From NCBI GenBank assembly GCA_030693145.1, contig JAUYBI010000049.1:7305-71304 (forward strand): a DNA stretch of 64,000 bases. The letters run 5' to 3'. The stretch comes from Candidatus Omnitrophota bacterium (GTDB taxonomy: Bacteria > Omnitrophota > Gorgyraeia > Gygaellales > Profunditerraquicolaceae). Both the position numbers and the translations under genes were made by a program. The notes under the pieces were generated by a model. The model saw only the letters and a program-made list of their open reading frames with translations. It was not told the origin of the DNA and made no database searches. Shown here piece by piece: positions 24,444 to 57,395 of this stretch (positions are counted from its first letter, which is position 1; each line of letters begins with the position of its first letter).

Positions 24444-24515
24444 GAGATTCCTCGTATTTTTATCTTTTCTTTTTGGGGAATCTGTGTACAATATAACAAA
24501 AGCTTAAAATAATAT

Positions 24516-24531
24516 TTAGCCGAGATAGCTC
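24516..24531 (+). repeat. duplicated 5' fragment of tRNA-Phe (TTAGCCGAGATAGCTC)
   Basis: 16-nt exact copy of the tRNA-Phe 5' end 56 bp upstream of the gene, followed by hairpin TCCGCCACAAAGCGTGGCGGA. Confidence 0.6.
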
Positions 24532-24573
24532 TCCGCCACAAAGCGTGGCGGATTCGCTAAGACATAAAAGTTA

Positions 24574-24645
24574 GCCGAGATAGCTCAGTGGTAGAGCGCG
24601 GCCCTGAAAAGGCCGGCGTGGGGGGTCCGATTCCCTCTCTCGGCA
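24574..24645 (+). tRNA. tRNA-Phe (GAA)
   Basis: Cloverleaf: acceptor GCCGAGA/TCTCGGC, D-arm GCTCAGTGGTAGAGC, anticodon stem CGGCC/GGCCG, loop CTGAAAA (anticodon GAA), T-arm; discriminator A. Confidence 0.85.
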
Positions 24646-24654
24646 TTTAATAAA

Positions 24655-24684: not shown

Positions 24685-24863
24685 TTTATGTTATGGCGTA
24701 ATTGTGTGGAAAACATACAGTTACGCCTTTTTGTTTTCCTATACTTAATTAGTTAATTTTGTATGAATTTGTATTTTCTTTATAGTTATTGGCTCATTAA
24801 CGGCTCAAACTTATTGAGTCATTGCGAGGAGCCGAAGGCGACGAAGCAATCTCAGGAGGTTTT

Positions 24864-25400
24864 ATGGCCTACGATCACATTAGAATATTAAATACTTTAT
24901 TTGCTAGCGGTGTATGGTATGAAATGACTCTGTCTGAAGTTAGAGTTTATGTCGCTATATGCAGCCACTGGAATTGGCAGAGATTAGAGGCATATCCTGC
25001 CATAAACACCCTTGCTGAAGAAACCCGTCTTTCCCGGCGCGGAGTTATCTATGCCCTAGAGCGGCTAAAAAAGAGGGGCCTCATCAGGGTTATTAAGAAG
25101 GGTCGCAAAAACTATTACCAAATCTTTGATTATCTTTTCAAAATGACTGCAACCTCAATAGGTGCAAAAAGTGCACTAATGGAATGGATAGGTGCAGATT
25201 TCGCTAAAACAGGTGAACAGGAGCGCGTAGATGGGTGCAGCCATATTCACCACCATATTAACTATACAATAAACAATACAACTATAACTAATTCCTTTAA
25301 CGCATCTAGCGAGAAAGCTGAACCTGATTATCTAAGGCAAATGCGTAGCGATCTTTTGGCAAGCGGGAGATATTTCTCGCCTAATCGCATAAAATTGTAG
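24864..25400 (+). CDS. winged-helix/HTH DNA-binding protein (replication-initiator N-terminal-like)
   Basis: ATG 24864 after GGAGG RBS; HTH segment NTLAEETRLSRRGVIYALERLKKRGLIRV. Confidence 0.45.
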   Translation: MAYDHIRILNTLFASGVWYEMTLSEVRVYVAICSHWNWQRLEAYPAINTLAEETRLSRRGVIYALERLKKRGLIRVIKKGRKNYYQIFDYLFKMTATSIGAKSALMEWIGADFAKTGEQERVDGCSHIHHHINYTINNTTITNSFNASSEKAEPDYLRQMRSDLLASGRYFSPNRIKL

Positions 25401-25473: not shown

Positions 25474-26565
25474 ATGAAACAGCCTTATGTACCACAGCTG
25501 CTACCGTTAGAATCAGTGGATTGGGTTAGGTTTATTACCTTAATTGGCCAAGCAAATGCTGAGCTGGCGCGATATGACGGTATATTGCAAGGCATCATTA
25601 ATCCGAGAGTCCTTTTGTCTCCATTGACTACTAATGAAGCTGTTATTTCTTCTAAAATTGAAGGAACGCAGGCTTCTTTGGAAGAGGTTTTGAAATACGA
25701 AGCTTCGCCGGATGTAAAAACTGAGAAATATGATGATATTAGGGAAATTATTAATTACCGAGAAGCAATGCGTTTCGCGATTCAATGGATGAAAGAAAAA
25801 CCTATAACGTTAAACCTAATTAAACAAATGCACGGCATGCTTCTTGACAGCGTTAGAGGTAAAGATAGAAGTCGCGGGAGTTTTAGGACTAGCCAGAATT
25901 ATATTGGTAGGTTTGGCTCTACTATTGAACAAGCAAGCTATGTTCCGCCTGAACCAGCGATTCTTATGGAGCATCTTTCAAATTTTGAGAAATATATCCA
26001 TTATGATGAAAAAGATCGCTTGGTACAATTGGCTATTATTCATGCGCAATTTGAAATAATTCATCCTTTTTTAGATGGCAATGGCAGATTAGGTAGAATC
26101 TTAATACCGCTCTTTCTTTATGAAAAGAAAGTGCTTAATTCTCCGATGTTTTATATAAGTGAATATCTTGAGAGTAATCGCGAAGAATATTACGCAAAAC
26201 TGAGGGCAATATCTGAAGATAAAAAATGGGATGACTGGATTGAATTTTTCCTTCGGGCGATCGTCGCGCAAGCAAAGGCCAATAGCGTTAAAGCAAAAGC
26301 GATACTCGAGTTATATGAAATTAAAAAACACAAACTTTCAGAGCTGACGCACTCTCAATATGTCATAAAAGTTCTAGATACGATGTTTGCGCGCCCGCTT
26401 TTTTCAACAACAGATTTTATTAAAATTTCAAAGATACCTAAAGAAAGCGCTATTAGGCTTTTACGACTACTTAAGAAAGAAAAGATACTGACTACGCTTC
26501 GGGAGGGTAAAGGAAGAAGCCCGGAGATACTCATATTTAATAAGCTTTTCGATATTGTGCAATAA
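25474..26565 (+). CDS. Fic family protein (AMPylase/adenylyltransferase-type) with C-terminal wHTH
   Basis: Canonical Fic motif HPFLDGNGRLGRIL (HPFx[D/E]GNGR), 363 aa. Confidence 0.85.
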   Translation: MKQPYVPQLLPLESVDWVRFITLIGQANAELARYDGILQGIINPRVLLSPLTTNEAVISSKIEGTQASLEEVLKYEASPDVKTEKYDDIREIINYREAMRFAIQWMKEKPITLNLIKQMHGMLLDSVRGKDRSRGSFRTSQNYIGRFGSTIEQASYVPPEPAILMEHLSNFEKYIHYDEKDRLVQLAIIHAQFEIIHPFLDGNGRLGRILIPLFLYEKKVLNSPMFYISEYLESNREEYYAKLRAISEDKKWDDWIEFFLRAIVAQAKANSVKAKAILELYEIKKHKLSELTHSQYVIKVLDTMFARPLFSTTDFIKISKIPKESAIRLLRLLKKEKILTTLREGKGRSPEILIFNKLFDIVQ

Positions 26566-26665: not shown

Positions 26666-26742
26666 ATCTTGTAATAAGACTATTAAGCAATATTCGCTAT
26701 ATAAAGATTCGAGGATTGATACTTGAAGTAAAGGAGATTAGA

Positions 26743-28749
26743 GTGACGATTAATTTTAAAGAGAGTGCAAGTTTTATTTGGAGCATGGCCGAACTTTTGC
26801 GCGGAGACTATAAGCAGTCTGAATACGGCCGGGTGATATTACCGCTTACGGTTTTGCGACGTCTGGATTGTGTGCTTGAGCCAACTAAGGAAGCAGTGTT
26901 GTCATATTTGCCACAAACTAAAGGATTATCGCCAGAAGCCGCCGAGACGGTACTTAAGAAAAAAGCGAAGTTATCTTTTTACAGTAAGAGCAAGTTTGAT
27001 TTTCAGAAACTGGTTGCTGATCCCAATGACATAGCCGCTAACCTAAGAAATTATATCAACGGTTTTTCTAAGAACGCCCGCAGTATTCTGGAACATTTTA
27101 ATTTTAATGATCATATCGAGCGGCTTGATAAATCGAATCTTTTGTATATGATCGTCAAGCGTTTTGCCGAAGTTGATCTGCATCCAGACAAGATTCAAAA
27201 CATTGAGATGGGCTATATCTTTGAAGAGCTTATTCGCAAGTTCGCCGACCTTTCCAATGAAACAGCCGGAGAACACTTTACGCCACGCGAAGTTATCCGG
27301 CTTATGGTCAATATTCTCTTTCTGAACGATAAAGATGTTCTTACTAAAAAAGGTATCGTAAAAACTCTATACGATCCTGCATGTGGAACTGGAGGTATGC
27401 TCTCTGTAGCTGAAGAATATCTTCGTGAACTTAACCCCGGTGCAGATTTACGCGTATTCGGTCAGGAGTTAAATCCTGAGTCTTATGCTATTTGTAATTC
27501 TGACATGCTCATTAAGGGGCAGAATACGGAGCATATTAAGTTTGGCAATTCCTTCACGCAAGATGGACTTAAAGACGAAAAGTTTGACTATATGCTGAGC
27601 AATCCTCCCTTTGGTGTGGAGTGGAAAAAGATTGAGGAGGAAATTACCAAGGAATACGAGAAGTTGGGTTTTTCTGGGCGTTTTGGCGCTGGACTTCCGC
27701 GTATCAGTGACGGCTCTTTTCTATTCTTACAGCACATGATTTCTAAGATGCGACCGGAGAATGGTGGCGCGCGGCTAGGGATAGTTTTCAACGGTTCACC
27801 TCTTTTTTCGGGTGGGGCCGTAAGTGGTGAAAGTGAAATCCGTAAATGGATTATTGAAAATGATATGCTCGAAGCGATTATTGCGATGCCGGATCAACTT
27901 TTCTATAACACCGGCATTTCGACTTACATTTGGATTGTTACGAATCGTAAAGAGAAGGAACGCAAAGACAAGATTCAGTTTATCAACGCGGTTGAGTCTT
28001 TTAGTAAAATGCCCCGTAGCCTTGGGAATAAACGAAATGAAATTAGTGATGAGCATATTACTGAAATTACCAAGATTTACGGAGAATTTAAGGAGTGTGA
28101 ATACTGCAAAATATTTCCTAACGAATATTTTGGCTATACGCGCGTAACAGTGGAAAGGTCGCTTCGGCTTAATTTTCAGGTTTTAAAGGAACGGATTGAG
28201 CGGCTTGATGAGCAGCCAGGACTAATTAATCTGGCTAAATCCAAGAAGAAAGGCAAAGAAGGATTAAGGGAAATCGAGGAAGGCGAAAAACTGAAAAAAG
28301 ATATCAAGGTGATGTTATTAACTTTCGATTCTAAGCTTTATAGGAACCGTGAGAAGTTTATTGAGGTTATCGAGCAAGTTGCAGAAAAATCAAGGCTTGA
28401 GATTAAAGCGCCTGTGATGAAGGCGATCCTTGAAGCTCTATCCGAGCGAGATGGAACGGCAGATATCTGTATGGATAAAGACGGGAATCCGGAGCCGGAT
28501 ACTGATCTGCGGGATTATGAAAACATTCCACTTATGGATAATATTGAGGATTATTTCAAGCGCGAAGTTTTGCCTCATGTGTCTGACGCGTGGATGGACA
28601 GGAGCAAAGATAAAGTCGGCTATGAGATAAATTTTACCAAGGAGTTTTATAAATACAAACCGCTAAGATCACTGAAAGAGATTCGCAATGATATCCTCGC
28701 ATTGGAAAAAGAAACCGAAGGGCTAATGGGGGAGGTTTTGAAAGACTAA
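26743..28749 (+). CDS. hsdM: type I restriction-modification system methyltransferase subunit HsdM
   Basis: HsdM N-terminal domain (FIWSMAELLRGDYKQSEYGRVILPLTVLRRLD), motif I DPACGTGGML, motif IV NPPF; GTG start 26743 after AAGGAG RBS. Confidence 0.9.
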   Translation: MTINFKESASFIWSMAELLRGDYKQSEYGRVILPLTVLRRLDCVLEPTKEAVLSYLPQTKGLSPEAAETVLKKKAKLSFYSKSKFDFQKLVADPNDIAANLRNYINGFSKNARSILEHFNFNDHIERLDKSNLLYMIVKRFAEVDLHPDKIQNIEMGYIFEELIRKFADLSNETAGEHFTPREVIRLMVNILFLNDKDVLTKKGIVKTLYDPACGTGGMLSVAEEYLRELNPGADLRVFGQELNPESYAICNSDMLIKGQNTEHIKFGNSFTQDGLKDEKFDYMLSNPPFGVEWKKIEEEITKEYEKLGFSGRFGAGLPRISDGSFLFLQHMISKMRPENGGARLGIVFNGSPLFSGGAVSGESEIRKWIIENDMLEAIIAMPDQLFYNTGISTYIWIVTNRKEKERKDKIQFINAVESFSKMPRSLGNKRNEISDEHITEITKIYGEFKECEYCKIFPNEYFGYTRVTVERSLRLNFQVLKERIERLDEQPGLINLAKSKKKGKEGLREIEEGEKLKKDIKVMLLTFDSKLYRNREKFIEVIEQVAEKSRLEIKAPVMKAILEALSERDGTADICMDKDGNPEPDTDLRDYENIPLMDNIEDYFKREVLPHVSDAWMDRSKDKVGYEINFTKEFYKYKPLRSLKEIRNDILALEKETEGLMGEVLKD

Positions 28750-28750
28750 A

Positions 28751-29215
28751 ATGCTCATTCTTGTAAAAAGTTATCTGTGTCTATTTAATAAAAATTGGTT
28801 TTTGGATGAATTGGTAAACGTTGATTTTAAGAGAGAATTACTTTCGAATTCTGGATTGCGAGAAGCTAATGAACAACATAAGAATGAAGCTAAAGATCGT
28901 CTGCGTCGCGATACAATAGAACGAAGAAAACTGCTTTATCAGAAAATGATACTTTCATTAGGCTGGATTTTGTTGGCAGCAGTCTCGGGATTGTTAATAT
29001 CGGTGTTCGGCTTCCATAGACAAATTTTTTATGAGAATAAATATGTCGGATTGTTATCTATATTTTGTTTTTCTTGGGCAACGCTTGCTCGCTTAGGATG
29101 GCAAGGGCAAACGTGTGCAGGAGATACTATTTTTGAGAAACTTGATGAAAATATTTTCTGGGTTTTGTATTTTTTTGGCACCCTATTTGGTGCTTTTTCA
29201 ATAATTGCGTCTTGA
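28751..29215 (+). CDS. small 3-TM membrane protein embedded between hsdM and hsdS
   Basis: 154 aa; charged N-terminal ~65 aa then three hydrophobic helices; starts 2 nt after hsdM stop. Confidence 0.5.
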   Translation: MLILVKSYLCLFNKNWFLDELVNVDFKRELLSNSGLREANEQHKNEAKDRLRRDTIERRKLLYQKMILSLGWILLAAVSGLLISVFGFHRQIFYENKYVGLLSIFCFSWATLARLGWQGQTCAGDTIFEKLDENIFWVLYFFGTLFGAFSIIAS

Positions 29216-29219
29216 TTAT

Positions 29220-30530
29220 ATGAAATATTATCCGGCATATAAAGATTCTAAAATTGAGTGGTTTCCTTCGATTCCTAAGCATTGGCAGCTTATTAAGCTA
29301 GGAAGAATAGGCCGTTTTTCTGCCAGCGGTATTGATAAGAAAAGCGATGCAAGCGAACTTCCCGTTAGGATGGTAAATTATACAAATGTTTATGGTAATT
29401 CTAGTTTAGAGATTAAGTTTTCGGAAAATTTAATGGAAACGACAACAACGTTAGAAAAAGTTAGGGAGCATAGTTTAAAAAAAGGAGACATGGTGTTTAC
29501 TCCAAGTTCTGAAACAGCCGAAGATATTGGTTTATCGGCTGTGGTTACAGCAGAGCTTCGTAATACTGTTTATAGCTATCATTTGATTCGTCTAAGGACT
29601 GGTGAGCGTTATAATCTGAATTTAGGGTTTAAGAAATATTTTTGCAATGTTCATGAAGTTTTGAGTCAATTTAGCAAAGCGTGTAAGGGAACGACGCGGC
29701 AAATCTTAGGTCGAGATGATTTTAAAGATATATTAATTCTGCTCCCACCAGTAAGCGAACAGAAAATAATTGCTGAGTATCTTAATCGCAAGGCCGCGCA
29801 GGTTGATGACTTGATTGCCAAAAAAGAGCGGATGATTGATCTTATCAAGGAGGAGCGGGCGGCGATCACCAATCGAGCAGTAACTAAAGGGCTTGATCCC
29901 AATGTCGAGATGAAAGATTCTGGCATTGAGTGGTTAGGCAAAATGCCGAAGCATTGGCAGATGAAAAGATTGAAATATTTAGTGTCCTTAGTTAATCAGC
30001 CGATTGAAGAGGTTAATGGAGCGGAACTGCGTATTGACTTAGAAAATCTTGAAAGCTGGACTGGAAAAACAATTGAGCTTGAGAGCCAAGATCAAAACAA
30101 CGAAGGAATGAAAAGTTTTGCTCCAGGGGACGTGTTGTTCAATAAATTGCGGCCATATCTTGCCAAAGTATATCGAGCAAAAAATTGTGGTGTTTGCGGC
30201 GGGGAACTCTTGGTTCTGCGTCCGACCACATTGATCGATCCGGATTTTCTTTTCTGTAGAGTCCTTTCAAGTGCTTTTATAAATGTGGTTGATGGTTCGA
30301 CCTACGGATCTAAAATGCCGAGGGCAAGTTGGGATTTTATTGGGAATCTCATTGTTCCATTTCCGAGCAAACCCGAACAAATTAAGATCGCAGAATACCT
30401 GCATCAGACCTTACAGAGAATGGATATAATTTTACAGAAATTGGGTTCGGAAATTGAATATTTAAGAGAATACCGCACCGCTTTGATTTCAGAAGTGGTA
30501 ACGGGAAAGATTGATGTGAGGGGGTTTTAG
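29220..30530 (+). CDS. hsdS: type I restriction-modification system specificity subunit HsdS
   Basis: Two target-recognition domains separated by conserved central/distal repeats (LPPVSEQKIIAEYLNRK ... PFPSKPEQIKIAEYLHQ). Confidence 0.85.
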   Translation: MKYYPAYKDSKIEWFPSIPKHWQLIKLGRIGRFSASGIDKKSDASELPVRMVNYTNVYGNSSLEIKFSENLMETTTTLEKVREHSLKKGDMVFTPSSETAEDIGLSAVVTAELRNTVYSYHLIRLRTGERYNLNLGFKKYFCNVHEVLSQFSKACKGTTRQILGRDDFKDILILLPPVSEQKIIAEYLNRKAAQVDDLIAKKERMIDLIKEERAAITNRAVTKGLDPNVEMKDSGIEWLGKMPKHWQMKRLKYLVSLVNQPIEEVNGAELRIDLENLESWTGKTIELESQDQNNEGMKSFAPGDVLFNKLRPYLAKVYRAKNCGVCGGELLVLRPTTLIDPDFLFCRVLSSAFINVVDGSTYGSKMPRASWDFIGNLIVPFPSKPEQIKIAEYLHQTLQRMDIILQKLGSEIEYLREYRTALISEVVTGKIDVRGF

Positions 30531-30532
30531 TC

Positions 30533-31507
30533 ATGAAAGATATAGTTAAGTCATTAAGAAATTCAGTATTTACAACATTTTTTTACATCTTGCTTGATTA
30601 TTATAAGAAACAACGTTCATGGTTTGATTATCTAATCATTTTTTTGATATTGAGTACAACTCTATTATTAGTTTCTTTAACTTGGAACGTAATTAAACAA
30701 TGGTATCTAGACTGGAGAAGAAAACACTTTCCTCGCGTGGGAATACTTAATGGGTCTATTAAATCTCGAACTGTCGAGCATCCATGCAGAAGACAGTGGA
30801 GTGAGATGACGCCGAGCATGTGGTTTGAACAATTAAAAAGGGATTTCAAGAAGCCCTTACTTAGCGAATTGATTCTAATACCAACGTCAGAAATTGACAA
30901 TTCTTGGAGTATAGTTATTAATCCGTTCGGAGAAAACTATCCCGAAGAAAATCCGCGTTTACTAAAAACTTTTAAAGAGATCTGTGAGTATATTAATAAA
31001 GGAGGAATATTTGTAGTAACTGGTAGCGCATTCTTTTATAATCAAAATACCTTTGCTACACCCCAGTCCGAGAGAGTAATAACGCATGTTATTGAAGGTG
31101 TGCAGTATCTTGAATATTCTGTTCTCACTCAAGAGTTTGGAGTTAAATATACAGGTAATATACATGATATTCAGAATAAAAAGGTGCTTTTTGAAGAACC
31201 GGTTGAGATAAATGTTACTCAAACGAGCGACATGGTTAAGATGTGGGGAGATTTATTGCAAGGGATTAACCATTTGAAGAGATTTAGGGCAGCTACTAGC
31301 GAAACTATCGATTATCTTCCTGTTATTATACAGGAAGGTGAGGATCAGTGGAATAAAGGCAAAAAAATATTTCCCATAGCTTTAATTCGATATGGCAAGG
31401 GGGCTTTGATACATGCAGGGTTGCACATACATTCATATAGTTGTGATGAATTTTTAGTTTTGAAGCGTTTAATCTTGAAATTGGCGAAGAATAAGTTTAC
31501 ATTCTGA
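30533..31507 (+). CDS. hypothetical protein with N-terminal TM helix, embedded between hsdS and hsdR
   Basis: 324 aa; TM LIIFLILSTTLLLVSLTW then ~270-aa soluble domain with no motif I can assign. Confidence 0.5.
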   Translation: MKDIVKSLRNSVFTTFFYILLDYYKKQRSWFDYLIIFLILSTTLLLVSLTWNVIKQWYLDWRRKHFPRVGILNGSIKSRTVEHPCRRQWSEMTPSMWFEQLKRDFKKPLLSELILIPTSEIDNSWSIVINPFGENYPEENPRLLKTFKEICEYINKGGIFVVTGSAFFYNQNTFATPQSERVITHVIEGVQYLEYSVLTQEFGVKYTGNIHDIQNKKVLFEEPVEINVTQTSDMVKMWGDLLQGINHLKRFRAATSETIDYLPVIIQEGEDQWNKGKKIFPIALIRYGKGALIHAGLHIHSYSCDEFLVLKRLILKLAKNKFTF

Positions 31508-31530
31508 TAATATAAATTAGGAGTTGCAAG

Positions 31531-34500
31531 GTGGGTATAACTAACGAAAAAGCTTTTGAAGACGCTATCGAACAAAGTTTGATGGATCCTGGCGGATATG
31601 TAAAAGGCGATCCGAATAATTTTAATCGGGATCTGGCGATTGATCAAATGGTTTTGTTTCAGTTTATCAAGGATACCCAGAAGAATGTTTGGGATAGCTT
31701 GGTGGCTATCCATGGCGCAGAGGTCGAGAAAAAGTTTTTATATCGCCTTAATCAAGAGCTGGATGCGCGCGGGATGCTTGATTGTTTGCGCCACGGATTC
31801 ACTGATTATGGCAAGAAATTCACACTCGCCTATTTTAAGCCAGTCAGCAAATTAAACCCGGAAACCCAAAAGTTATTCGATAGAAATATCCTCACCGTTA
31901 CCCGGCAGGTTCATTACAGCATCAAGGATGAAAGCTCGATTGATATGCTTTTGTCTGTCAACGGCCTTCCTGTGGCTACTATTGAATTAAAAAATCCATT
32001 TACCGGTCAGGATGTGGATGACGCCAAACGGCAATATAAATATGACCGCGACGAACGTGAGCTTTTATTTCAGTTTAAGAAGCGTGCCTTTGTCCATTTT
32101 GCTGTAGATACAGACGTCATTTACATGACCACGCGCCTTCAGGGGAGCAAGACAAAGTATCTGCCTTTCAATAAGGGCTATAACAAAGGTGCCGGGAATC
32201 CCCCGAATTCAAGCGGCCATAAGACATCGTATTTATGGGAAGCGGTCTTGGTAAAAGACAGCTGGATGGATATCTTAGGAAGATTTTTGCTTTTAGAAGT
32301 TGAGGAAAAGACGTTTGATGGTAGAAAGTTCAAGATTGAGACAATGATATTTCCACGTTATCACCAACTTGATAGCGTCCGGAAGCTTTCTTCCGATGCT
32401 CTCGCAAATGGAGCAGGAAAGAATTATTTAATTCAACATAGCGCTGGGAGTGGCAAGAGCAATTCTATCGCATGGCTTGCATATCATTTGGCTAGTCTTC
32501 ATGACAAAAACGATAAGAGGTTATTTGATTCGGTGATTGTGATCACCGATCGTATCGTTCTTGATAAACAATTACAAGATACGATTTATCAATTTGAACA
32601 TAAGTCTGGAGTGGTTGAAAAAATTGACAAAGATTCCGCCCAGCTGGCTCAGGCACTCACCAGTGGAACAAATATTATTATCACTACACTTCAAAAGTTT
32701 CCTTTTGTTTTGGATAAGGTTGGGGCACTGCCTAAGCGAAATTACGCGGTTATCGTAGATGAGGCGCATAGTTCGCAGGGTGGCGAATCCGCTAAAAAGA
32801 TGAAAGACGTTCTTTCGGCGGTTGATAAAATCGAGATCGTATCCGAGAAAATCGATGAGGATGACGATATAGAAGATGAAATCCGTGAATCTATGCTTAA
32901 ACGTGGCCCCCGGACGAATTTAAGTTTCTTTGGTTTTACGGCAACCCCAAAAGCAAAAACGCTGGAGTTTTTCGGGCAAAAGGGCATAGATGGAAAACCA
33001 CAACCATTTCATCTTTATTCTATGAGGCAGGCGATCGAAGAAAGATTTATTTTTGATGTTCTTGAAAACTACACCAGCTATCAAACTTTTTTCCAGTTAT
33101 CCAAGAAGATTGAAGACGATCCGAATATGAATAAGAAAAAGGCCGCTTGTGCGATCGCGCGTTTTTTAACACTACACCCCTATAACTTGGCACAGAAAAC
33201 CGAAGTCATGATTGAGCACTTCCGGCAGATCACTTTGAAAAAGATTGGCGGTAAGGCCAAGGCGATGGTCGTGACCGCTTCTCGCGAACACGTGGTGCGA
33301 TATAAACATGAGTTTGATCGGTATTTGAAAGAGAAAGGCTATAAAGATATCAAAGCTCTTGTGGCCTTTTCGGGTACAGTGCTTTTGGATGGTATTCCTC
33401 CGGAATATACCGAACCGGGAATGAATGGTTTTGGCGAAAAAGAACTGCCCCAAAAGTTTGCTACATCCGAATATCAGATTTTGCTTGTTGCGGAAAAGTA
33501 TCAGACCGGCTACGACGAGCCACTTTTACATACCATGTATGTGGACAAGCGGCTTGACGGCGTCAAGGCTGTGCAGACCATGAGCCGGTTAAATAGAACG
33601 TGTCCGGGGAAGGAAGATACTTTCATTTTGGACTTCGTTAATAAGCGCGAAGATATATTAGCGGCGTTTCAGCCGTATTACGAGCAGACACAGTTAAGCG
33701 ATGTTACGGATCCAAATAAGCTTTATGATCTCAAGACCAAACTGGATTCGTTTAAGGTGGTTTATCAATCAGATATCGATGCATTCTGTGCCGTATTTTT
33801 CAGGAATAAAGAATTACAGACGAAGCGCGAGCATGCTCAATTGAATTCAATAGTGGATGTGGCGGTTGAGCGGTTCAAGGCAATTGAAAAAGATGAGCAT
33901 AAAGAAGATTTTGCCAATACGCTGGGTGTTTTTGTTCGCTTGTACGCGTTTTTGGCGCAGATTATGCCATTTCAAGATATTGAACTTGAGAAATTCTATG
34001 CTTATTCCCGACTATTGTTGAAAAAACTTCCGGGGCCTGATGGTGGAGAAAGATATCATTTTGGTGATGAAGTCGCTCTTGAGTATTACCGCTTGCAAAA
34101 AATAGTTGATGGTAAGATTCAATTGCAAAAGGATTCAGGTGCGGCCATTGATCCTATTTCAGAAGCTGGGACGAAGAAGGATAAAGAAGAATACGCTTAC
34201 TTGTCAGAGATAATAAAGTTTTTAAATGACCGGTTTGGAACTGATTTTACCGAAGCTGACAAGCTATTTTTTGATCAGATAGAAGAAGAGATGGTTATGG
34301 ATGAGAAGTTGGGTGTTCAGGCTAAGGCTAACACAATTGATAATTTTAAATATGGATTTGATGACGTTTTTATTGCAAAACTCGTTGAGCGAATGGACCA
34401 GAATCAGGATATTTTTAACAAAATTATGGATGATAAAGTTTTTGCGGCAGTGGTGAAGGATTATTTATTAAAGAAGGTTTATGATCGTTTAAATAAAGAT

Positions 34501-35016
34501 AATAGTGGTTCGGCGGAAGGCATTTTATTTTTTAAGGATGTGATTACGAATGGAGATATTGATGATAATCGTAAATACATAAATTTTCTGCCGGTGTATT
34601 CCTTGCAGGCAGTAGCGACGTCTTTTAAAGAACAATCAACTCCTGAAGTTATTGGTTGGAAACCGATTAGCGGTCGGAAGATCAGCAAAGAAATGTTTAT
34701 TGCACAGGTAATAGGTAAATCTATGGAGCCGACTATTTCGGACGGGAGCTGGTGTTTATTTCGGTTTGAACGCGGAGGATCTCGTAATGGATTAGTGGTG
34801 CTTGTTGAGTCGCGTTTGGTTGCTGATCCTGAAACCAATCAAAAATTTACAATTAAACGTTACAAGAGTGAAAAGGAAGATCTTGGTAACGGTCAGTGGA
34901 GGCACAAAAAAATTATTTTATCCCCTGACAATAAAGATTTTAAGGATATTGTTCTTGAAAATATATCTGGGGAAGATTTTCGAGTTGTGGCAGAGTTTAT
35001 AGAAGCTTTTAAATAA
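31531..35016 (+). CDS. hsdR: type I restriction enzyme endonuclease subunit HsdR with C-terminal S24 (LexA-like) peptidase domain
   Basis: N-terminal PD-(D/E)XK nuclease (VATIELKNP), SF2 helicase motifs (QHSAGSGKS Walker A, VIVDEAHSS DEAH box, YQTGYDEP), then C-terminal ~130 aa with GKSMEPTISDGSWCLF ... FTIKRYK matching the S24 Ser/Lys dyad context (GDSMEPTI.DGD ... VKRL in LexA). Confidence 0.8.
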   Translation: MGITNEKAFEDAIEQSLMDPGGYVKGDPNNFNRDLAIDQMVLFQFIKDTQKNVWDSLVAIHGAEVEKKFLYRLNQELDARGMLDCLRHGFTDYGKKFTLAYFKPVSKLNPETQKLFDRNILTVTRQVHYSIKDESSIDMLLSVNGLPVATIELKNPFTGQDVDDAKRQYKYDRDERELLFQFKKRAFVHFAVDTDVIYMTTRLQGSKTKYLPFNKGYNKGAGNPPNSSGHKTSYLWEAVLVKDSWMDILGRFLLLEVEEKTFDGRKFKIETMIFPRYHQLDSVRKLSSDALANGAGKNYLIQHSAGSGKSNSIAWLAYHLASLHDKNDKRLFDSVIVITDRIVLDKQLQDTIYQFEHKSGVVEKIDKDSAQLAQALTSGTNIIITTLQKFPFVLDKVGALPKRNYAVIVDEAHSSQGGESAKKMKDVLSAVDKIEIVSEKIDEDDDIEDEIRESMLKRGPRTNLSFFGFTATPKAKTLEFFGQKGIDGKPQPFHLYSMRQAIEERFIFDVLENYTSYQTFFQLSKKIEDDPNMNKKKAACAIARFLTLHPYNLAQKTEVMIEHFRQITLKKIGGKAKAMVVTASREHVVRYKHEFDRYLKEKGYKDIKALVAFSGTVLLDGIPPEYTEPGMNGFGEKELPQKFATSEYQILLVAEKYQTGYDEPLLHTMYVDKRLDGVKAVQTMSRLNRTCPGKEDTFILDFVNKREDILAAFQPYYEQTQLSDVTDPNKLYDLKTKLDSFKVVYQSDIDAFCAVFFRNKELQTKREHAQLNSIVDVAVERFKAIEKDEHKEDFANTLGVFVRLYAFLAQIMPFQDIELEKFYAYSRLLLKKLPGPDGGERYHFGDEVALEYYRLQKIVDGKIQLQKDSGAAIDPISEAGTKKDKEEYAYLSEIIKFLNDRFGTDFTEADKLFFDQIEEEMVMDEKLGVQAKANTIDNFKYGFDDVFIAKLVERMDQNQDIFNKIMDDKVFAAVVKDYLLKKVYDRLNKDNSGSAEGILFFKDVITNGDIDDNRKYINFLPVYSLQAVATSFKEQSTPEVIGWKPISGRKISKEMFIAQVIGKSMEPTISDGSWCLFRFERGGSRNGLVVLVESRLVADPETNQKFTIKRYKSEKEDLGNGQWRHKKIILSPDNKDFKDIVLENISGEDFRVVAEFIEAFK

Positions 35017-35115
35017 TAATGAATAATCGTTTCTAATTTTTTTAAAAAACAGTGAAGTAAAGGGAAAACAATTTCTAGTTTCTACAGGTGTGCGAAGGAT
35101 TAAACAGGAGGAGAA

Positions 35116-36273
35116 ATGGCAGATATAAAAAGAGAGTATGAAGGAGATCATGAAGTAGAAGAAGAATATTTGGTTCTTGAATATGATATTACAGCTTCGC
35201 CAAATGATTTTAATATAAAAACCATATTTGATTTTATAGAATCTGGAGCTGTTATCATACCGGAATTTCAAAGGAATTATGTATGGGATATTAGGCGAGG
35301 ATCAAAATTTATCGAATCCCTTATTATGAACTTGCCTGTACCGCAAATTTTTCTCTATGAATCAGGGAGAAATAAATTCAAAGTTATTGATGGACAGCAA
35401 AGATTAATGACAATTTATTATTTTATGAAAAAGAGGTTCCCTTGGAAAGAAAAAAGAATGGAGCTGCGGCGTATCTTTGATAAAGCAGGGAAAATTCCTC
35501 CTGAGGTGTTAGCTGATGATAAATTCTTTTCAGATTTTAACCTCAAATTAGAAAGTAGCGTTGAGGGAGTGACTAGTAGATTAAATGGTTTGAACTATGA
35601 TACGCTCAAGGATTACAAAACCTCTTTTGACCTACGTACTATTAGGAATATTATTGTTAAACAAACTAAGCCAGAAGATGATGATTCTTCTATGTATGAA
35701 ATATTTACAAGATTAAACTCTGGTGGGATTAATTTAACTCCTCAAGAAATTCGTGCGTGTATGTTTCATTCTGATTTCTATGATACATTACATAAAGTTA
35801 ATTTAGATGAGCGTTGGAGAAAAATAATTGGCTCGAAAGATCCAGATCTTCATTTAAAGGATGTAGAGATCCTATTAAGGAGTTATGCTGCGTTAATAAA
35901 AGGAGAAAACTATGCTCCTCCCATGACAAAGTTTCTTAATACATTTTCAAAAGAACGTGAAAAGGAAACTCGTAAAAGCTTAGATTATTACGAAAAATTA
36001 TTTTATTCATTTTTGGATTATTGTTCAGAACTTCGAGAAAAATCTTTCTTTGGTAAAACTGGAAAGTTTAATATTTCTCTTTTTGAAGCTGTTTTCTATG
36101 CAATTTGCGAAAAATCTTATAAAAAGCATTCTTTAGTTGAGGGGAAGATCGAGGCAATAAAATTAAATAGATTAAAAAGAGACAAACAGTTTACGGGTGC
36201 TTCTCAAATGCGTTTATCAAGTAAACAAAATGTCGCTATTCGCCTTGATCGCGCAAGGAAGATTATATTATAA
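35116..36273 (+). CDS. DUF262 (ParB/Srx-like nuclease domain) protein
   Basis: PEFQRNYVW and KVIDGQQRLMTIYYF (DGQQR) motifs diagnostic of DUF262. Confidence 0.8.
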   Translation: MADIKREYEGDHEVEEEYLVLEYDITASPNDFNIKTIFDFIESGAVIIPEFQRNYVWDIRRGSKFIESLIMNLPVPQIFLYESGRNKFKVIDGQQRLMTIYYFMKKRFPWKEKRMELRRIFDKAGKIPPEVLADDKFFSDFNLKLESSVEGVTSRLNGLNYDTLKDYKTSFDLRTIRNIIVKQTKPEDDDSSMYEIFTRLNSGGINLTPQEIRACMFHSDFYDTLHKVNLDERWRKIIGSKDPDLHLKDVEILLRSYAALIKGENYAPPMTKFLNTFSKEREKETRKSLDYYEKLFYSFLDYCSELREKSFFGKTGKFNISLFEAVFYAICEKSYKKHSLVEGKIEAIKLNRLKRDKQFTGASQMRLSSKQNVAIRLDRARKIIL

Positions 36274-36282
36274 AATTTTCAT

Positions 36283-36798
36283 ATGGACAATTCCCCAATT
36301 GATAAGTTATATTTTGAAACTAAGTCGATATTGGATTTTCTTGAAAGAAATAATGAATTATCATTTAAAAGTGATATTGATAATATGTTTAAAAGATATT
36401 TATTATTGGTTTCAGGAGGTTATTTTGAAGAATGCATAACGAATATTTTACTGAATCTTGTATCTAAAAACGTAGATAACAAACTTATCATTGAATTTTT
36501 AAAGAATAAAGGTATTAAAAGACAATACCATACTTATTTTGATTGGGAATCTATTAATGCAAATCAATTCTTTAGTTTGTTTGGGGAAGAATTCAAGGAA
36601 AAGATGAGTCAAGAAGTTAATAATAAAGAAACATTGAAGGTTTCGATAAAAGATTTTATACAAATAGGGCATGCTAGGAATTTACTTGCTCATAAAAATG
36701 CTACTTTAGTTAATCTAGATAAGACTTCGGAAGAAACATATGCTCAATACAAGAGTGCAGAGGAGTTTATTAGTTTTCTTCAAGAGCAACTTTTATAA
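36283..36798 (+). CDS. HEPN-domain protein (Abi/RiboL-PSP-like)
   Basis: 171 aa alpha-helical; C-terminal GHARNLLAHKN = R-[N]-x3-H HEPN catalytic motif. Confidence 0.55.
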   Translation: MDNSPIDKLYFETKSILDFLERNNELSFKSDIDNMFKRYLLLVSGGYFEECITNILLNLVSKNVDNKLIIEFLKNKGIKRQYHTYFDWESINANQFFSLFGEEFKEKMSQEVNNKETLKVSIKDFIQIGHARNLLAHKNATLVNLDKTSEETYAQYKSAEEFISFLQEQLL

Positions 36799-36823: not shown

Positions 36824-36852
36824 TTGACAGATGTAATTACATATGGTAACAT
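36824..36852 (+). promoter_or_regulatory. promoter TTGACA-17-TAACAT overlapping palindromic operator TGTAATTACA
   Basis: TTGACA 36824-36829, TAACAT 36847-36852, perfect 10-bp palindrome 36832-36841 in the spacer; upstream of XRE gene. Confidence 0.55.
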
Positions 36853-36878: not shown

Positions 36879-37073
36879 ATGACGACGATTGATAGGCAAA
36901 AATTCGCGAGAGCAATTAAGAGGTATAGAGAAGAGAAGGATCTTACTCAGAAGGAATTAGCGGGTAAGTTGATGACTACAACTACAACAGTTGCGCGGTG
37001 GGAATTGGGGATGAGCGTGCCGAAACAAGACAGGGTGATTCAGGAGATAAAGGCATTAGGTATTAACTGGTAA
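36879..37073 (+). CDS. XRE-family HTH transcriptional regulator
   Basis: 64 aa; LTQKELAGKLMTTTTTVARWELG HTH_3 pattern. Confidence 0.75.
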   Translation: MTTIDRQKFARAIKRYREEKDLTQKELAGKLMTTTTTVARWELGMSVPKQDRVIQEIKALGINW

Positions 37074-37099
37074 ATTTTTTTGTCCTTTGAGATTACAAG

Positions 37100-37109
37100 T
37101 GTAATTACA
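37100..37109. promoter_or_regulatory. second copy of TGTAATTACA palindromic operator
   Basis: Identical 10-bp palindrome between XRE gene and xis-like gene. Confidence 0.5.
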
Positions 37110-37135
37110 TACGATATAAGGAAAGGAGTGGCGAC

Positions 37136-37315
37136 ATGGATAGATTATTAACGCCGGAGGAAGTTTGTCAGAGGTATAGCATTAAAAAGAATACGTTTTA
37201 TCAGTGGACTTCAAAAAATTTAATACCATACCTCAAAAGAGGCGGCTTACGTTTTAAGGCGGATGAGCTTGAGAAATGGGAGAGCGGAGAGGTAAACAAT
37301 GTTAAATTAATATGA
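37136..37315 (+). CDS. excisionase-family DNA-binding protein (Xis/AlpA-like)
   Basis: 59 aa (below ORF-track cutoff): MDRLLTPEEVCQRYSIKKNTFYQWTSKNLIPYLKRGGLRFKADELEKWESG; RBS AAGGAAAGGAG; stop overlaps integrase ATG (ATGA). Confidence 0.65.
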   Translation: MDRLLTPEEVCQRYSIKKNTFYQWTSKNLIPYLKRGGLRFKADELEKWESGEVNNVKLI

Positions 37316-38505
37316 CCTATCGTTTAAGGCAATTTAACCTTAAGAGCGTTGTTAAGCGGGGTAAATTTTTTGAGATCCGCTATACTAACCCTCGTACCCA
37401 AAAAAGGGAATATTATAAGTTAGGCATAACACATGATGAAGTAAAAAGGAACCTGCCTGAATTTAATAGAATGTACGCCGGCCTTAAAAGGCAGGTTTTT
37501 TCTTATAGGATTACTGTCAGTCAAGGTGTGCAATCGTGGCTTGAGCAAAAAAGAACTGAATTAAGTAATAAGAAAACCGTGGTTCGGTATGAAGAAATTA
37601 TGAATAATTTCGCGGAATTTCTTAAAGATAAATTCCCGGCTTTAGGATATATGGATGAATTAGCGCAAAAACACTTTGAGGAGTTTAAAGAATACCGCAA
37701 AAATATTAAAGGGAAAAAGGAGAGGACGGTCAATTTTGAATTAGATATGTTAAGTAACTTATTCAAACGTTTGATGGAAAAAGATTATCTTAATTATAAT
37801 CCTTTATCGAAAGTTAAGAGATTGCAGGAACCATATAAAGAAGAGCGTTGGTTTACTGAAGAGGAGATTCGGAAAATTTTTGAAATAGCCAAAAGTGAGA
37901 AAACAAAGATAAATTGGTATGTTATATTCGCTACCTATTATTATACAGGTATGCGTAAAAGGGAATTGATGTCTCTCAGGAAGAAAGATATTGATTTTGA
38001 CAAAGGAATTATACTTATTCGGCACAAAGAGGGGTTTAAGCCGAAAACAGATAGGCCGAGGGCGATTCCTATTCATCCGGAGTTGGTGTCGATTTTGAGA
38101 TTGCTTCGGCCCTTCGGGCCTCGCAATGACACTGGGGACAGTGTTTGCAATGACGAGGGGAAAGTCGTGTCTTGTAATAACCAGGGAGACGGAGATTTTG
38201 TATTTGTTAATTCAAGGGGTAAGCCGTTTTCTAACGACGCGATAAGGCAGAAGTTAAAGAAGTTGTGCCGCAAGGCAGAGATAAAGCCCGGTAAGTTACA
38301 TAGCTTTAGGCATACTTGGACCGCTCATTCTATTATGAAAGGCTGTCCTTCAGATGTGGTTCAGGCGATCGGCGGCTGGAAAGAAAAAGATATGATTGAA
38401 AGATACAAGCACCTTGCGCCGGATTATATGGCTGATATTTATAAGAAAACAATTTTTTTAGGCAGCCAGGCTGAAGATAAAGGCTCTTTAAAGGCTCAAG
38501 ATTAA
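37312..38505 (+). CDS. tyrosine-type site-specific recombinase/integrase
   Basis: N-terminal SAM-like domain, C-terminal catalytic R...HSFRHTWTAH...GGW...RYKHL (R-H-R-Y) motifs. Confidence 0.85.
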   Translation: MTYRLRQFNLKSVVKRGKFFEIRYTNPRTQKREYYKLGITHDEVKRNLPEFNRMYAGLKRQVFSYRITVSQGVQSWLEQKRTELSNKKTVVRYEEIMNNFAEFLKDKFPALGYMDELAQKHFEEFKEYRKNIKGKKERTVNFELDMLSNLFKRLMEKDYLNYNPLSKVKRLQEPYKEERWFTEEEIRKIFEIAKSEKTKINWYVIFATYYYTGMRKRELMSLRKKDIDFDKGIILIRHKEGFKPKTDRPRAIPIHPELVSILRLLRPFGPRNDTGDSVCNDEGKVVSCNNQGDGDFVFVNSRGKPFSNDAIRQKLKKLCRKAEIKPGKLHSFRHTWTAHSIMKGCPSDVVQAIGGWKEKDMIERYKHLAPDYMADIYKKTIFLGSQAEDKGSLKAQD

Positions 38506-38586
38506 AGTTATGGGAGATGTAAATGTTTGATATAGTTAATATTTATGAGAAAAGAAATTCCTTATCCCTCTTTCGGCATTTTAAAT

Positions 38587-50380: not shown

Positions 50381-51016
50381 CAAATGGATACAAAACTCAA
50401 AGCAGATATTGCAGAATCAGCTGTAACAACTGAGCTTCTTAAAAGAAGCTTTAGGGTGTTACAACCTATAGGAGATCGGCTAGCCTACGATTTAGGAGTA
50501 GATCTTCAAGGTAGGTTGTTGCGCATACAGGTGAAGAGTGCTTGGTTTAACGCCAAAGATAATTGCTATGTTGTTGATGGGCGTAGAACTAAGACAAATC
50601 GCCGGCGTATGTTAAGAAAGCACTACAGCGCTGAAGATTTTGATTTTGCAATTATTTACCTTGCTGATTTGCAAGTGTTTTATGTTATGCCTGTAGCAGT
50701 TTTTTCTAGCTATGGAAGCACAGTAACATTGATAGAAAAAATTAAAAGGCAGCGTAAACCTAAATCAGCAGAGTATAGGGAGCGTTGGGATTTGTTATCC
50801 GATGGGCTCTTCAGCCGGTAACGGTTGAAGGATAACCTGTCAAATTCGGTGAAGCCTTAATTTGCAAAGGTAATACCGAGCCAAGTTCGCCAATATTTGT
50901 GGCGAAAAGGTGTAGAGACTAAACGGCAGGGACCCGCCATAGGATTTTGGCGGGCCAAGATATAGTCCAGACTACGAATTCACTATTTGTGAAGCAGCGC
51001 AAGCTGAAGTAGTAAG
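50381..51016 (+). other. group I (IC3-like) self-splicing intron in tRNA-fMet anticodon loop
   Basis: 5' exon ends in U, insert ends in G (GAAGTAGTAAG). 3' ~195 nt carries bacterial tRNA group I core motifs GTCAAATTCGGTGAAGCCTAA, CCGAGCCAAG, AAGGTGTAGAGACTAAACGGCAGGG as in the Azoarcus/cyanobacterial tRNA introns. Confidence 0.75.
50384..50821 (+). CDS. intron-encoded PD-(D/E)XK-family homing endonuclease (I-Ssp6803I-like)
   Basis: 145 aa ORF filling the 5' part of the intron. E11, D36, Q49-V-K51 match the E/D/QxK catalytic constellation of I-Ssp6803I from the Synechocystis tRNA-fMet intron. Confidence 0.55.
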   Translation: MDTKLKADIAESAVTTELLKRSFRVLQPIGDRLAYDLGVDLQGRLLRIQVKSAWFNAKDNCYVVDGRRTKTNRRRMLRKHYSAEDFDFAIIYLADLQVFYVMPVAVFSSYGSTVTLIEKIKRQRKPKSAEYRERWDLLSDGLFSR

Positions 51017-51093
51017 CATAACCTTGAGGTCGTCCGTTCAAATCGGGCCCCCGCAACCATGTAAATCTCTCGAACTTTAGATTGAGAGATAAA

Positions 51094-51131
51094 AATAGCC
51101 CTGATTAGCTTTGCTAGCCAGGGCTATTTTT
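51094..51131 (+). terminator. rho-independent terminator after tRNA-fMet
   Basis: ATAGCCCTG-loop-CAGGGCTAT followed by TTTTTAT. Confidence 0.7.
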
Positions 51132-51629
51132 ATGTCTTGATGTGTCAAATGGTTAGGACATTATTTATTCTGTCGTTTTGCCATTAGCGAATACCCCCGT
51201 AGGTTCGAAGAAGTCAGCCAAATAAATCTCGTCGAACCATCTCTTTATCTCAGAATTGGCGATTAGTTTCTCGCAGTTAGTGTCGCGCTTATTAGGCTAT
51301 ATATTGAATATTTTGATAAAATAATAGGCGAGAAACTGTAAAATACGTCTTTTTATCTCTGTCGTGCCATATTTCTGAGTGGTCAGGAAGGATATATTAT
51401 TTTTATGGATGGTAGAGTCCAAAAAATCAAGCCATTTTTTGTTGTTAATAGCTTATAATGTGGTACTATAAAGTAAAATTAGATTTAGCATTTTTTAAGA
51501 ATTGGTATAACTTATAGCGTAGGTCCTGAATATTGAATCTAATTTATTGAAAAGCCTAAGAGAATAATTTCAAGTTTCAAGGGTTAACCCTGATGTTTTT
51601 TCTTATACTTATTTCCTCGAGGATCTAAA

Positions 51630-52283
51630 ATGATGTTGTGGCCAAAGTTTTTTGTTATAGTTTGCGCGTCTTATGTCCTTGGGTCTATTCCCTATGGGTT
51701 CATCATCGCAAAATTATTTAAGAAAATTGATATCCGAACTGTCGGATCAGGAAATGTCGGAGCAAAGAACTTGGCACGAGTTTTGGGTAGGCGATGGGGC
51801 ATTATTACTTTTCTGATGGATGCGTTGAAAGGTTCCGTTGCAGTTATTACTGCACATCTCATAATGCGTGAATATAAATATTTTCAACCATCAATTTATG
51901 AAATGGGACTGATTGTTGCCGGCCTTTTTTCGGTTATCGGGCACAATTGGACGATTTTGTTGGGTTTTAAGGGTGGTAAAGGTCTCTCAACTAGCATAGG
52001 AGTTCTTTTAGCTTTAAGTCTATTTTTGCCATATTTGAGAGTTATTTCTTTTGCCGGAATAGGTACTTTTGTCATCGCGTTCCTCGTACTTAAAAATCAC
52101 TTTATATCCGCAAGTCTGGCAATAGTGATCTATTTTTTATTATGTTTTATTTATCCTTTGATTAATATTCAATATAAAATATTTATATTTCTTTTGAGTT
52201 TTATTCTGCTAGTGAGACACACTGATAATTTTAAGGACATAAGTAAAAAATATAGAGCGCAAGCTTTAAAAAATGCTGAATAA
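51630..52283 (+). CDS. plsY: glycerol-3-phosphate acyltransferase PlsY
   Basis: 217 aa, 5-6 TM; SIPYGF, GSGNVGAKN and GFKGGKGL motifs. Confidence 0.85.
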   Translation: MMLWPKFFVIVCASYVLGSIPYGFIIAKLFKKIDIRTVGSGNVGAKNLARVLGRRWGIITFLMDALKGSVAVITAHLIMREYKYFQPSIYEMGLIVAGLFSVIGHNWTILLGFKGGKGLSTSIGVLLALSLFLPYLRVISFAGIGTFVIAFLVLKNHFISASLAIVIYFLLCFIYPLINIQYKIFIFLLSFILLVRHTDNFKDISKKYRAQALKNAE

Positions 52284-52827
52284 ACTTGTATTTAAAATCG
52301 CGGATTGTAAAGAGGAGTTCGAGCAGATTTATCGATTGAATTATGATACTTTTGTCAAAGAAATTCCTCAGCACGCCGGCAATCCCAGTAATCAATTAAT
52401 TGACAAGTTTCATAGTAAGAATACTTATTGCATCGCTAAAGATCAAAAAGAAGTGGTGGGCATGATTAGCGCTTGCGACGATCGGCCGTTTTCAGTGGAA
52501 CAAAAAATAGATAACTTCGATGATTTTTTTCCTAAAAACAGAAAAATACTTGAATTACGCCTCTTAAGTATAAAGAAAAAATATCGTAAAGGACTTGTAT
52601 TCAAAGCGTTGATTAAAACTCTCTATGAGCGCGTTATAAAAGGGCGTTACGAATTTATTGTTATTTCCGGCACATTGAGAGAAGTGAAGCTTTATCAACA
52701 CATCGGTTTTGTCCCTTTCGGAGGACTCGTTGGGTCAAAAGAGGCTCCCTATCAACCCATGTTTATTGAAGAAAAAATGATCAATGTCTTTACTGGTAAA
52801 TTTTTCGATGAAATCAATTCAAACTAA
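52273..52827 (+). CDS. GNAT-fold N-acyltransferase family protein
   Basis: 184 aa; acyl-CoA N-acyltransferase-like core (VVGMISAC ... YQHIGFVPFG); function inferred only from fold-level resemblance. Confidence 0.4.
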   Translation: MLNKLVFKIADCKEEFEQIYRLNYDTFVKEIPQHAGNPSNQLIDKFHSKNTYCIAKDQKEVVGMISACDDRPFSVEQKIDNFDDFFPKNRKILELRLLSIKKKYRKGLVFKALIKTLYERVIKGRYEFIVISGTLREVKLYQHIGFVPFGGLVGSKEAPYQPMFIEEKMINVFTGKFFDEINSN

Positions 52828-53872: not shown

Positions 53873-53876
53873 TCGC

Positions 53877-54440: not shown

Positions 54441-54524
54441 AATTTCACTTATGTTAATAGCTTAAATTAGTGGTATAATAAGTTTAAAGTAAGTGGATTA
54501 TTTTTTTAAGAGTAGGAGGATCCA

Positions 54525-56701: not shown

Positions 56702-56729
56702 ATTTAATCTGTTTATAAAGGTAGAAGAT

Positions 56730-56764
56730 GTGGAATGTCCGCCTCTCAAGGGCGGACATTCCAC
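56730..56764. terminator. 14-bp-stem hairpin downstream of GDYXXLXY gene
   Basis: GTGGAATGTCCGCC-TCTCAAG-GGCGGACATTCCAC. Confidence 0.45.
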
Positions 56765-57028
56765 ATTCAGTTATCTCTCAATCAGTTACGTCATTTCCAG
56801 CCAAAAAATACCGGACAAAACGGACATATTTTCACCTAACTTTATCTCTGATTAGGGCAAATTTCTCGGTATTTGCCCGATTACCTATATAATCAGCTTG
56901 TGAGTATTAAGAGATATAGTTATAAAGTATACAAACATGGGCAACCAATTAACCCGCTAGGGAAACTTAGCGGGTTTTTTGTTGTTTTTATGCCTGATTA
57001 GAGGTATAATAATAATCAGGAGGGCAAA

Positions 57029-57352: not shown

Positions 57353-57395
57353 ATATCCTATCCATTGCTTAGGGTAATTACAGAGGAGGAAAATT

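Follow-up and report, generated by a model that had tools for sequence, protein, structure and literature searches.

The window analyzed here is a stretch of 64,000 nt from a Candidatus Omnitrophota bacterium (GenBank assembly GCA_030693145.1, contig JAUYBI010000049.1, positions 7,305 to 71,304), and all coordinates below are counted from its first nucleotide. Two co-oriented genes lie on the forward strand at 35116–36273 (gene A, 385 aa) and 36283–36798 (gene B, 171 aa), separated by 9 nt according to the ORF list. The product of gene A has a PD-T4-2_A/NsnA-like architecture with a DUF262 domain and is predicted to be an NTPase and DNA sensor; that of gene B is a HEPN protein of the RiboL-PSP family and a predicted RNase effector. 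A Shine-Dalgarno-like AGGAGG was read from the sequence at 35106–35111 (forward strand), 4 nt ahead of the ATG of gene A, and a separate one was sought upstream of the gene B start, where none was seen. Both proteins were 100% identical to NCBI entries of a Candidatus Omnitrophota metagenome-assembled genome (MAG). An earlier reading, made from the sequence only, had described a two-gene DUF262-HEPN module at this position, and the profile searches bore it out, with domain matches to both predicted proteins far beyond chance (PF03235, E = 6.7e-33; PF18735, E = 6e-17).

The pair resides in a 13.9-kb island inserted at tRNA-Phe, with att repeats matching at 16 of 17 positions at its two ends, a score reached by none of 300 shuffles. 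The left repeat (TCCCTCTCTCGGCATTT, 24632–24648, forward strand) is the 3' end of the tRNA gene (24574–24645), and the right one (TCCCTCTTTCGGCATTT, 38565–38581, forward strand) is located 60 nt past the stop codon of a tyrosine integrase gene (37312–38505, forward strand; PF00589, E = 7.1e-31). The integrase-bearing island of the sequence-only reading was thereby confirmed. The island genes are ordered as HTH_36, Fic, type I restriction-modification (R-M) operon, DUF262-HEPN pair, HTH_3 (36879–37073, PF01381), a HTH_17 Xis-like gene directly ahead of the integrase (37136–37315, PF12728), and the integrase. The R-M operon (26716–35016, forward strand; Pfam and PADLOC) comprises hsdM (26716–28749), hsdS (29205–30530), and hsdR (31531–35016), all on the forward strand, as well as two embedded genes of unknown kind. 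Even inside the island, the pair is compositionally distinct: the GC content is 31.7% in gene A and 26.6% in gene B, compared with 37.7% in the island, 40% in the R-M operon, and approximately 43% in the flanks. No Rfam families, significant tandem repeats, or terminators were detected within or beside the pair, and a good promoter-like site was found downstream of it, ahead of the HTH_3 gene.

A separate observation was made on the neighboring HsdR (1161 aa), which carries a C-terminal S24 LexA-like peptidase domain with the Ser and Lys motifs present. Close homologues of this domain (55–80% identity) were fused to other restriction or defense domains: the HsdR C-terminal domain PF11867, Methylase_S, Mrr, DpnI_C, a TnsA-like endonuclease, and a DUF2075 helicase. 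No description of fusions between S24 peptidases and restriction enzymes was found in a literature search, and this arrangement may be more unusual than the DUF262-HEPN pair itself.

The N-terminal part of the gene A protein matched the Pfam family GmrSD_N/DUF262 (PF03235) over aa 34–216 (Pfam envelope, nt 35215–35763, forward strand). All three DUF262 motifs, as defined in PMC12065111, were present: QRNYVW (aa 52–57), DGQQR (aa 92–96), and FTRLN (aa 197–201). They were essentially invariant among 73 homologues, with DGQQR invariant in all 73 pairs, and aligned weakly, motif by motif, with those of BrxU (7p9k). The remainder of the protein (aa 217–385, nt 35764–36270, forward strand) had no Pfam match and was purely helical with high pLDDT in the AF2 secondary structure; it is the likely counterpart of the DNA-binding domain of NsnA, for which the term ParBDB was introduced in PMC12065111. 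For the whole AF2 model (pLDDT 82), the top PDB fold matches were BrxU, DndI, and ParB/Noc CTPases. In PADLOC, the best match was NsnA (6.8e-60, full length, aa 22–384), followed by PD-T4-2_A (1.7e-43). DUF262 had previously been labeled here as a nuclease domain, a label that was not upheld: no Pfam match to DUF1524/HNH (PF07510) was obtained, no histidine was invariant anywhere in the protein among 30 homologues, and the domain is predicted from sequence to serve as a ParB-like NTPase/sensor domain.

The gene B protein matched HEPN_RiboL-PSP (PF18735) over nearly its full length with 62.6 bits, against a gathering cut-off of 28.4, so that the HEPN assignment proposed for the small ORF held in the profile search (E = 6e-17). 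Its match to the PADLOC model PD-T4-2_B was modest (1.8e-6, 26 bits). The AF2 model was all-alpha with a pLDDT of 92.7. The Rx4H catalytic motif, R132-N-L-L-A-H137, was read from the sequence at 36676–36693 (forward strand), within GHARNLLAH (aa 129–137, nt 36667–36693). The motif had thus been recognized correctly by the sequence-only reading and misplaced slightly, since it falls within the final quarter of the sequence and not at the very end. R132, N133, and H137 were invariant in an alignment of homologues (29/29) and in all 73 paired homologues, and E49 was likewise invariant across the 73 intact pairs. A second conserved motif specific to the family, QYHTYFDW (aa 81–88, nt 36523–36546, forward strand), contains the invariant H83; its conservation is to be read with the motif having been among the patterns used for retrieving the loci. 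The HEPN family of gene B comprises approximately 900 clusters at 50% identity.

Conservation of the pairing was assessed from both genes. In the scan based on gene B, one genome per species was searched (185,579 species); relatives were found at 195 loci in many bacterial phyla and in methanogen/ANME archaea, and 80 of these loci were fetched. A gene A homologue (E from 1e-36 to 1e-146) was located upstream on the same strand at 76 of the 80 loci, that is, at 76 of the 78 that could be evaluated, and the gap between the two genes was mostly −13 to +21 nt. At two of the four other loci the contig did not extend upstream, and the last two were orphan HEPN genes, neighbored by an AAA_21 and DUF4276 pair in one case and by PPK2 in the other. 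The DUF262 gene was frameshifted, truncated, or displaced at 5 of the 76 loci. An intact HEPN gene was present at four loci with a truncated or frameshifted DUF262 gene and at two loci without DUF262; some of these DUF262-broken or DUF262-less loci are possibly assembly errors.

The reciprocal search, based on gene A, was carried out in the viral and proviral sequences of IMG/VR and yielded full-length relatives at 35 loci, 33 of them evaluable. A RiboL-PSP HEPN gene was directly downstream of DUF262 at 30 of these 33 loci. The HEPN belonged to the same family as gene B in 23 cases; in the other seven, the DUF262 protein was only 31–35% identical and the RiboL-PSP HEPN scored above the Pfam threshold. 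At the remaining three related loci, three small unknown ORFs occupied the place of the HEPN gene. Co-occurrence was therefore 97% when counted from HEPN (76/78) and 91% when counted from DUF262 (30/33), and the association expected by the sequence-only reading was recovered in both directions. The two proteins were also co-inherited: in a mirror-tree comparison of 73 intact pairs, their pairwise identities correlated with r = 0.78 (Mantel p = 0.001). Further copies of the pair were found in the Akkermansia phage Chambord, in E. coli and Klebsiella P2-like phages, and on an Exiguobacterium plasmid. It occupies the hotspot beside gpA in the E. coli P2-like phage and adjoins a tyrosine recombinase gene on the plasmid.

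The flanking genes were not conserved, and the pair is thus regarded as an autonomous module. Homologues of the HsdM, HsdS, and HsdR of the window (E < 1e-4) or of its HTH genes were found at none of the 80 related loci. A conserved mini-element consisting of the pair and an integrase was considered and rejected, as homologues of the window integrase were present at only two of the 80 loci, on the opposite strand. The position next to the R-M operon, which had been pointed out earlier, is real in that the two adjoin each other in the island, and it is incidental in light of the 80 related loci.

Taken together, the two genes are likely to make up an anti-phage module of the PD-T4-2 type that is self-contained and moves horizontally, and in which DUF262 would be the sensor and HEPN the RNase effector. 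The coupling of the two is proposed on the basis of the operon organization and the co-inheritance. In this model, gene A, with its ParB-like DUF262 NTPase and helical ParBDB domain, would act as a sensor or switch and bind DNA, probably phage DNA that bears a modification foreign to the host or some other feature specific to infection. A change of conformation that depends on NTP, of the kind seen for DUF262 of GmrSD, BrxU, and SspE, would then license the separate HEPN protein, probably dimeric and with a composite active site, to cleave RNA, by which translation would be shut down and phage production stopped. We infer which protein senses and which one acts, as well as the trigger, the RNA that is cut, and what becomes of the cell. 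Protection against T4 comes from the literature on a system of E. coli in which both Pfam families recur, and its extension to the window pair is by analogy. The defense-type interpretation given earlier is in keeping with this, the pair belonging by its predicted domains to a class for which activity against phages has been demonstrated.

A variant of this model was also considered, in which the clade of the pair is a mechanistically distinct, under-annotated DUF262-HEPN branch. Its ParB-type NTP-switch DNA clamp would sense a general infection cue, such as replication intermediates or DNA ends, rather than a specific modification, and would allosterically license the HEPN RNase acting in trans. 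Within the clade, the DUF262 protein has approximately 56% identity over at least 190 species of bacteria and archaea, and the PADLOC PD-T4-2_B model missed many of the members. We consider this variant doubtful; if true, control of an RNase by a ParB-like nucleotide switch would have been shown for the first time.

HEPN domains are the toxins of HEPN-MNT and related toxin-antitoxin systems (overview in the DARNA preprint). The pair could by the same token be an addiction module, with HEPN as a constitutive RNase toxin and DUF262 as its antitoxin, serving mainly to stabilize islands and plasmids and not to defend against phages. The tight coupling of the genes, 9 nt apart, and their location on mobile elements beside recombinases (the island of the window as well as the Exiguobacterium plasmid) are consistent with this. 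However, a protein of 385 aa with an NTPase domain and conserved catalytic motifs is atypical as an antitoxin, and the E. coli representative protects its native host against T4. The HEPN gene is also intact in genomes with a broken or absent DUF262 gene, a state expected to be lethal if the antitoxin were essential, although this argument is weak and assembly errors may account for some of the cases. Addiction as the main role is therefore considered unlikely. The HEPN-MNT type in particular was rejected, as HEPN is accompanied by DUF262 here and Pfam revealed no nucleotidyltransferase domain in the neighborhood. An AbiF-type RNA antitoxin or repeat component was sought and rejected as well: there was no Rfam match and no meaningful tandem repeat, and the spacers of 99 and 9 nt leave no room for one.

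The genomic setting could also suggest that the pair is an accessory to the type I R-M genes next to it, a second-line suicide module that acts when restriction fails and depends on Hsd or on methylation. The pair follows hsdR on the same strand after a spacer of 99 nt in which no terminator was detected, and DUF262/COG1479 has been described within type I R-M loci and in fusions to HEPN, where a cell-death module tied to DNA modification was proposed (Makarova 2013). In some relatives, such as that in Akkermansia phage Chambord, the gene immediately upstream encodes a DNA methyltransferase, and a homologue of the Chambord methyltransferase was present in the flanks at 3 of the 80 loci. The lack of Hsd homologues at all 80 related loci (E < 1e-4) speaks against such dependence, as do the GC content of the pair (27–32%, compared with 40% in the R-M operon) and its occurrence alone in phage hotspots and on plasmids. 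With the flanks unconserved, functional coupling to the type I R-M operon was dismissed as a general rule, and the accessory role is very unlikely for the window pair. Even less credence is given to an action on DNA and not on RNA, whether as a type IV restriction system like GmrSD that has been split or as a degenerate Menshen, which we regard as highly improbable. NsnA is indeed the best PADLOC match of gene A, and BrxU, a member of the GmrSD family, is the closest solved fold. However, gene A lacks both DUF1524/His-Me finger and an invariant histidine, no NsnB ATPase or NsnC effector is nearby, and its partner carries an invariant HEPN RNase motif. Moreover, the NsnA profile outscored PD-T4-2_A on every DUF262-HEPN pair tested; it is a broad profile, and its top score is thus not diagnostic. 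The preferred reading remains that of a PD-T4-2-type defense module.

Among the known DUF262 systems, GmrSD, BrxU, and SspE share with gene A a DUF262 NTPase domain that is N-terminal and contains DGQQR, and the solved structure closest to gene A is BrxU. DUF262 is in these systems an NTPase by which modified DNA is recognized and the nuclease fused to it is controlled (reviews: PMC10952713 and PMC12065111). Their effector is a DUF1524 His-Me finger DNase or nickase fused in cis, whereas that of the window pair is a predicted HEPN RNase encoded in trans. Restriction of the GmrSD type was rejected, with gene A having neither DUF1524 nor an invariant histidine, and the distinction from GmrSD drawn in the sequence-only reading stands. 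Menshen (NsnABC; Millman 2022; Li et al. 2025) was considered, as NsnA was the top PADLOC match. Gene A has the NsnA architecture, with ParB-DUF262 and a helical ParBDB-like C-terminal domain, and the predicted logic is shared, a DUF262 sensor with an RNA-targeting effector. The locus differs from Menshen in that it has neither the ABC-type ATPase transducer NsnB nor NsnC (inPIN and nuclease), with a small HEPN gene directly downstream instead. No matches to an ATPase, NsnB, or NsnC were found in the neighborhood by Pfam or PADLOC, the genes following gene A being HEPN, HTH_3, HTH_17, and the integrase. Menshen was rejected on the absence of NsnB and NsnC and the breadth of the NsnA model. Dazbog was rejected too, neither protein matching a DzbA or DzbB model (PADLOC, E ≤ 0.1).

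Related pairs were found in tblastn searches of phages and plasmids, none of them identical to the PD-T4-2 of ECOR65. The pairs of the P2-like hotspot (Peduovirus P24B2 gp44/gp43 and Klebsiella phage ST16-OXA48phi5.4 gp38/gp39) have the same order, DUF262 followed by HEPN, and their HEPN proteins belong to the RiboL-PSP and MAE_28990 families with an ARNxLAH-type motif. They differ from the window pair in that DUF262 is only 27–29% identical and the HEPN is longer (220–239 aa) and belongs to a neighboring subfamily. The combination was already listed in the HEPN survey of Anantharaman et al. 2013 (PMC3710099), where a Ribo L-PSP-HEPN entry is given in an operon with ParB. This entry has the same HEPN family and the same class of partner (ParB-like/DUF262), and it is part of a computational catalogue without a system-level definition; the present numbers (97%, 91%, and r = 0.78) are added to it. 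They give quantitative support to DUF262 and RiboL-PSP-HEPN as a tightly co-inherited autonomous two-gene cassette in bacteria, archaea, phages, and plasmids.

The nearest defined system is PD-T4-2 from E. coli ECOR65, annotated as 'DUF262, HEPN' (Vassallo et al. 2022, PMC9519451). Its locus is QOYX01000002:338334–339873, and its proteins are RCO39066.1 and a partner that carries no annotation. In HHpred, the top hits of its two proteins were PF03235 for 2A (99.7%) and PF18735 for 2B (97.8%), and plaquing of T4 was restored when PD-T4-2 was deleted from ECOR65 (Vassallo et al. 2022, PMC9519451). No description of its mechanism was found in the literature. The likeness of the window pair to this system was judged by profile models and the published family annotation. 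Both are two-gene operons of DUF262 (PF03235, without DUF1524) followed by a small RiboL-PSP HEPN (PF18735), their total sizes are similar (approximately 1.54 kb in PD-T4-2 and 1.68 kb in the window), and both are located in accessory or mobile DNA. The window proteins matched PADLOC PD-T4-2_A and PD-T4-2_B, the B match being modest and the A match outscored by the broad NsnA model. The differences are the divergent sequences, the Omnitrophota MAG as the host, and a gene B that is strong to PF18735 and modest to the PD-T4-2_B profile. Judged from these matches, the window pair shows each feature that defines the PD-T4-2 type and could be tested, and it is assigned to this type as a divergent member. 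The clade is broadly distributed and only partly captured by current defense-system models. As a class, the system is a reasonable target for biochemistry, regarding the trigger, the RNA target, and the communication between NTPase and RNase; the Omnitrophota instance raises no new question. The novelty implied by the sequence-only reading is not sustained: the operon was catalogued in 2013 (PMC3710099) and validated as the defense system PD-T4-2 in 2022 (PMC9519451), and both window proteins match its PADLOC models. The architecture is already known, and the window holds an ordinary further example of it, from Omnitrophota.

The restriction subunit of the type I R-M operon in the island (hsdR, window 31531-35016, + strand) carried a C-terminal LexA-like Peptidase_S24 domain (aa 1035-1155, about 34633-34995). 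Its Pfam score was 29.5 bits (cut-off, 23.3), and it contained the motifs GKSMEP (Ser) and FTIKRY (Lys). hsdR and the S24 domain formed one continuous ORF, whereas a separate 140-aa S24 peptidase is given instead in the NCBI annotation. Close homologues of the S24 module shared 55-80% identity with it, and many of them were from Omnitrophota. These homologues were joined to further restriction or defence domains, namely PF11867 (HsdR C-terminal domain), Methylase_S, Mrr, DpnI_C, TnsA-like and DUF2075 helicase domains. No description of S24 fusions to restriction or defence domains was found in a full-text literature search. One possible reading is that the domain on HsdR acts as a self-cleaving switch that couples restriction to RecA/SOS, i.e., restriction alleviation.

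The R-M operon also held two embedded genes of unknown function. The first (28751-29215, 154 aa) separated hsdM from hsdS, with an 11-nt overlap into the latter; judged by eye, its product appeared hydrophobic and is possibly membrane-spanning. The second (30533-31507, 324 aa), between hsdS and hsdR, had a hydrophobic N-terminal stretch. No credible Pfam match was obtained for either protein, and the 324-aa protein likewise had no match in PADLOC or NCBIfam.

At the other end of the island from the integrase, the tRNA-Phe gene was adjoined by the genes of an HTH_36 protein (24822-25400, 192 aa) and a Fic/DOC-family protein (Fic_N + Fic; 25474-26565, 363 aa). A 23-nt duplicate with 91% identity (24509-24531 and 24564-24586) was observed here, taking in the first 13 nt of tRNA-Phe; it was located 55 nt upstream of the tRNA-Phe gene and followed by a GC-rich hairpin. 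The duplicate may be a remnant of earlier recombination at tRNA-Phe. Downstream of the island, a second low-GC stretch (51000-58000; GC 0.33-0.39 versus about 0.43) may be another horizontally acquired region.

Two copies of a 22-nt repeat (36827-36848 and 37095-37116, 82% identity), which includes the palindrome TGTAATTACA, were positioned immediately upstream of the HTH_3 gene and of the HTH_17 (Xis-like)/integrase genes. A promoter-like site (TTGACA-17-TAACAT) was overlapped by the copy at 36827-36848, and the repeat is probably an operator for the island repressor.

Close homologues of the DUF262 protein (45-47% identity) were also encoded with no HEPN gene behind them, in three related IMG/VR viral loci (L098, 4240-5384; L104; L105). 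There, DUF262 was followed by a trio of short ORFs (about 80-104, 81-104 and 154-155 aa), which had no Pfam or PADLOC match and might represent an alternative effector set. Among the 80 genome loci fetched for HEPN relatives, only 3 had a methyltransferase homologous to that of Akkermansia phage Chambord within 6 kb of the DUF262-HEPN pair. In Chambord itself (L083, 1842-4652), the DNA methyltransferase gene overlapped the start of DUF262, resulting in a three-gene arrangement with the DUF262-HEPN pair.
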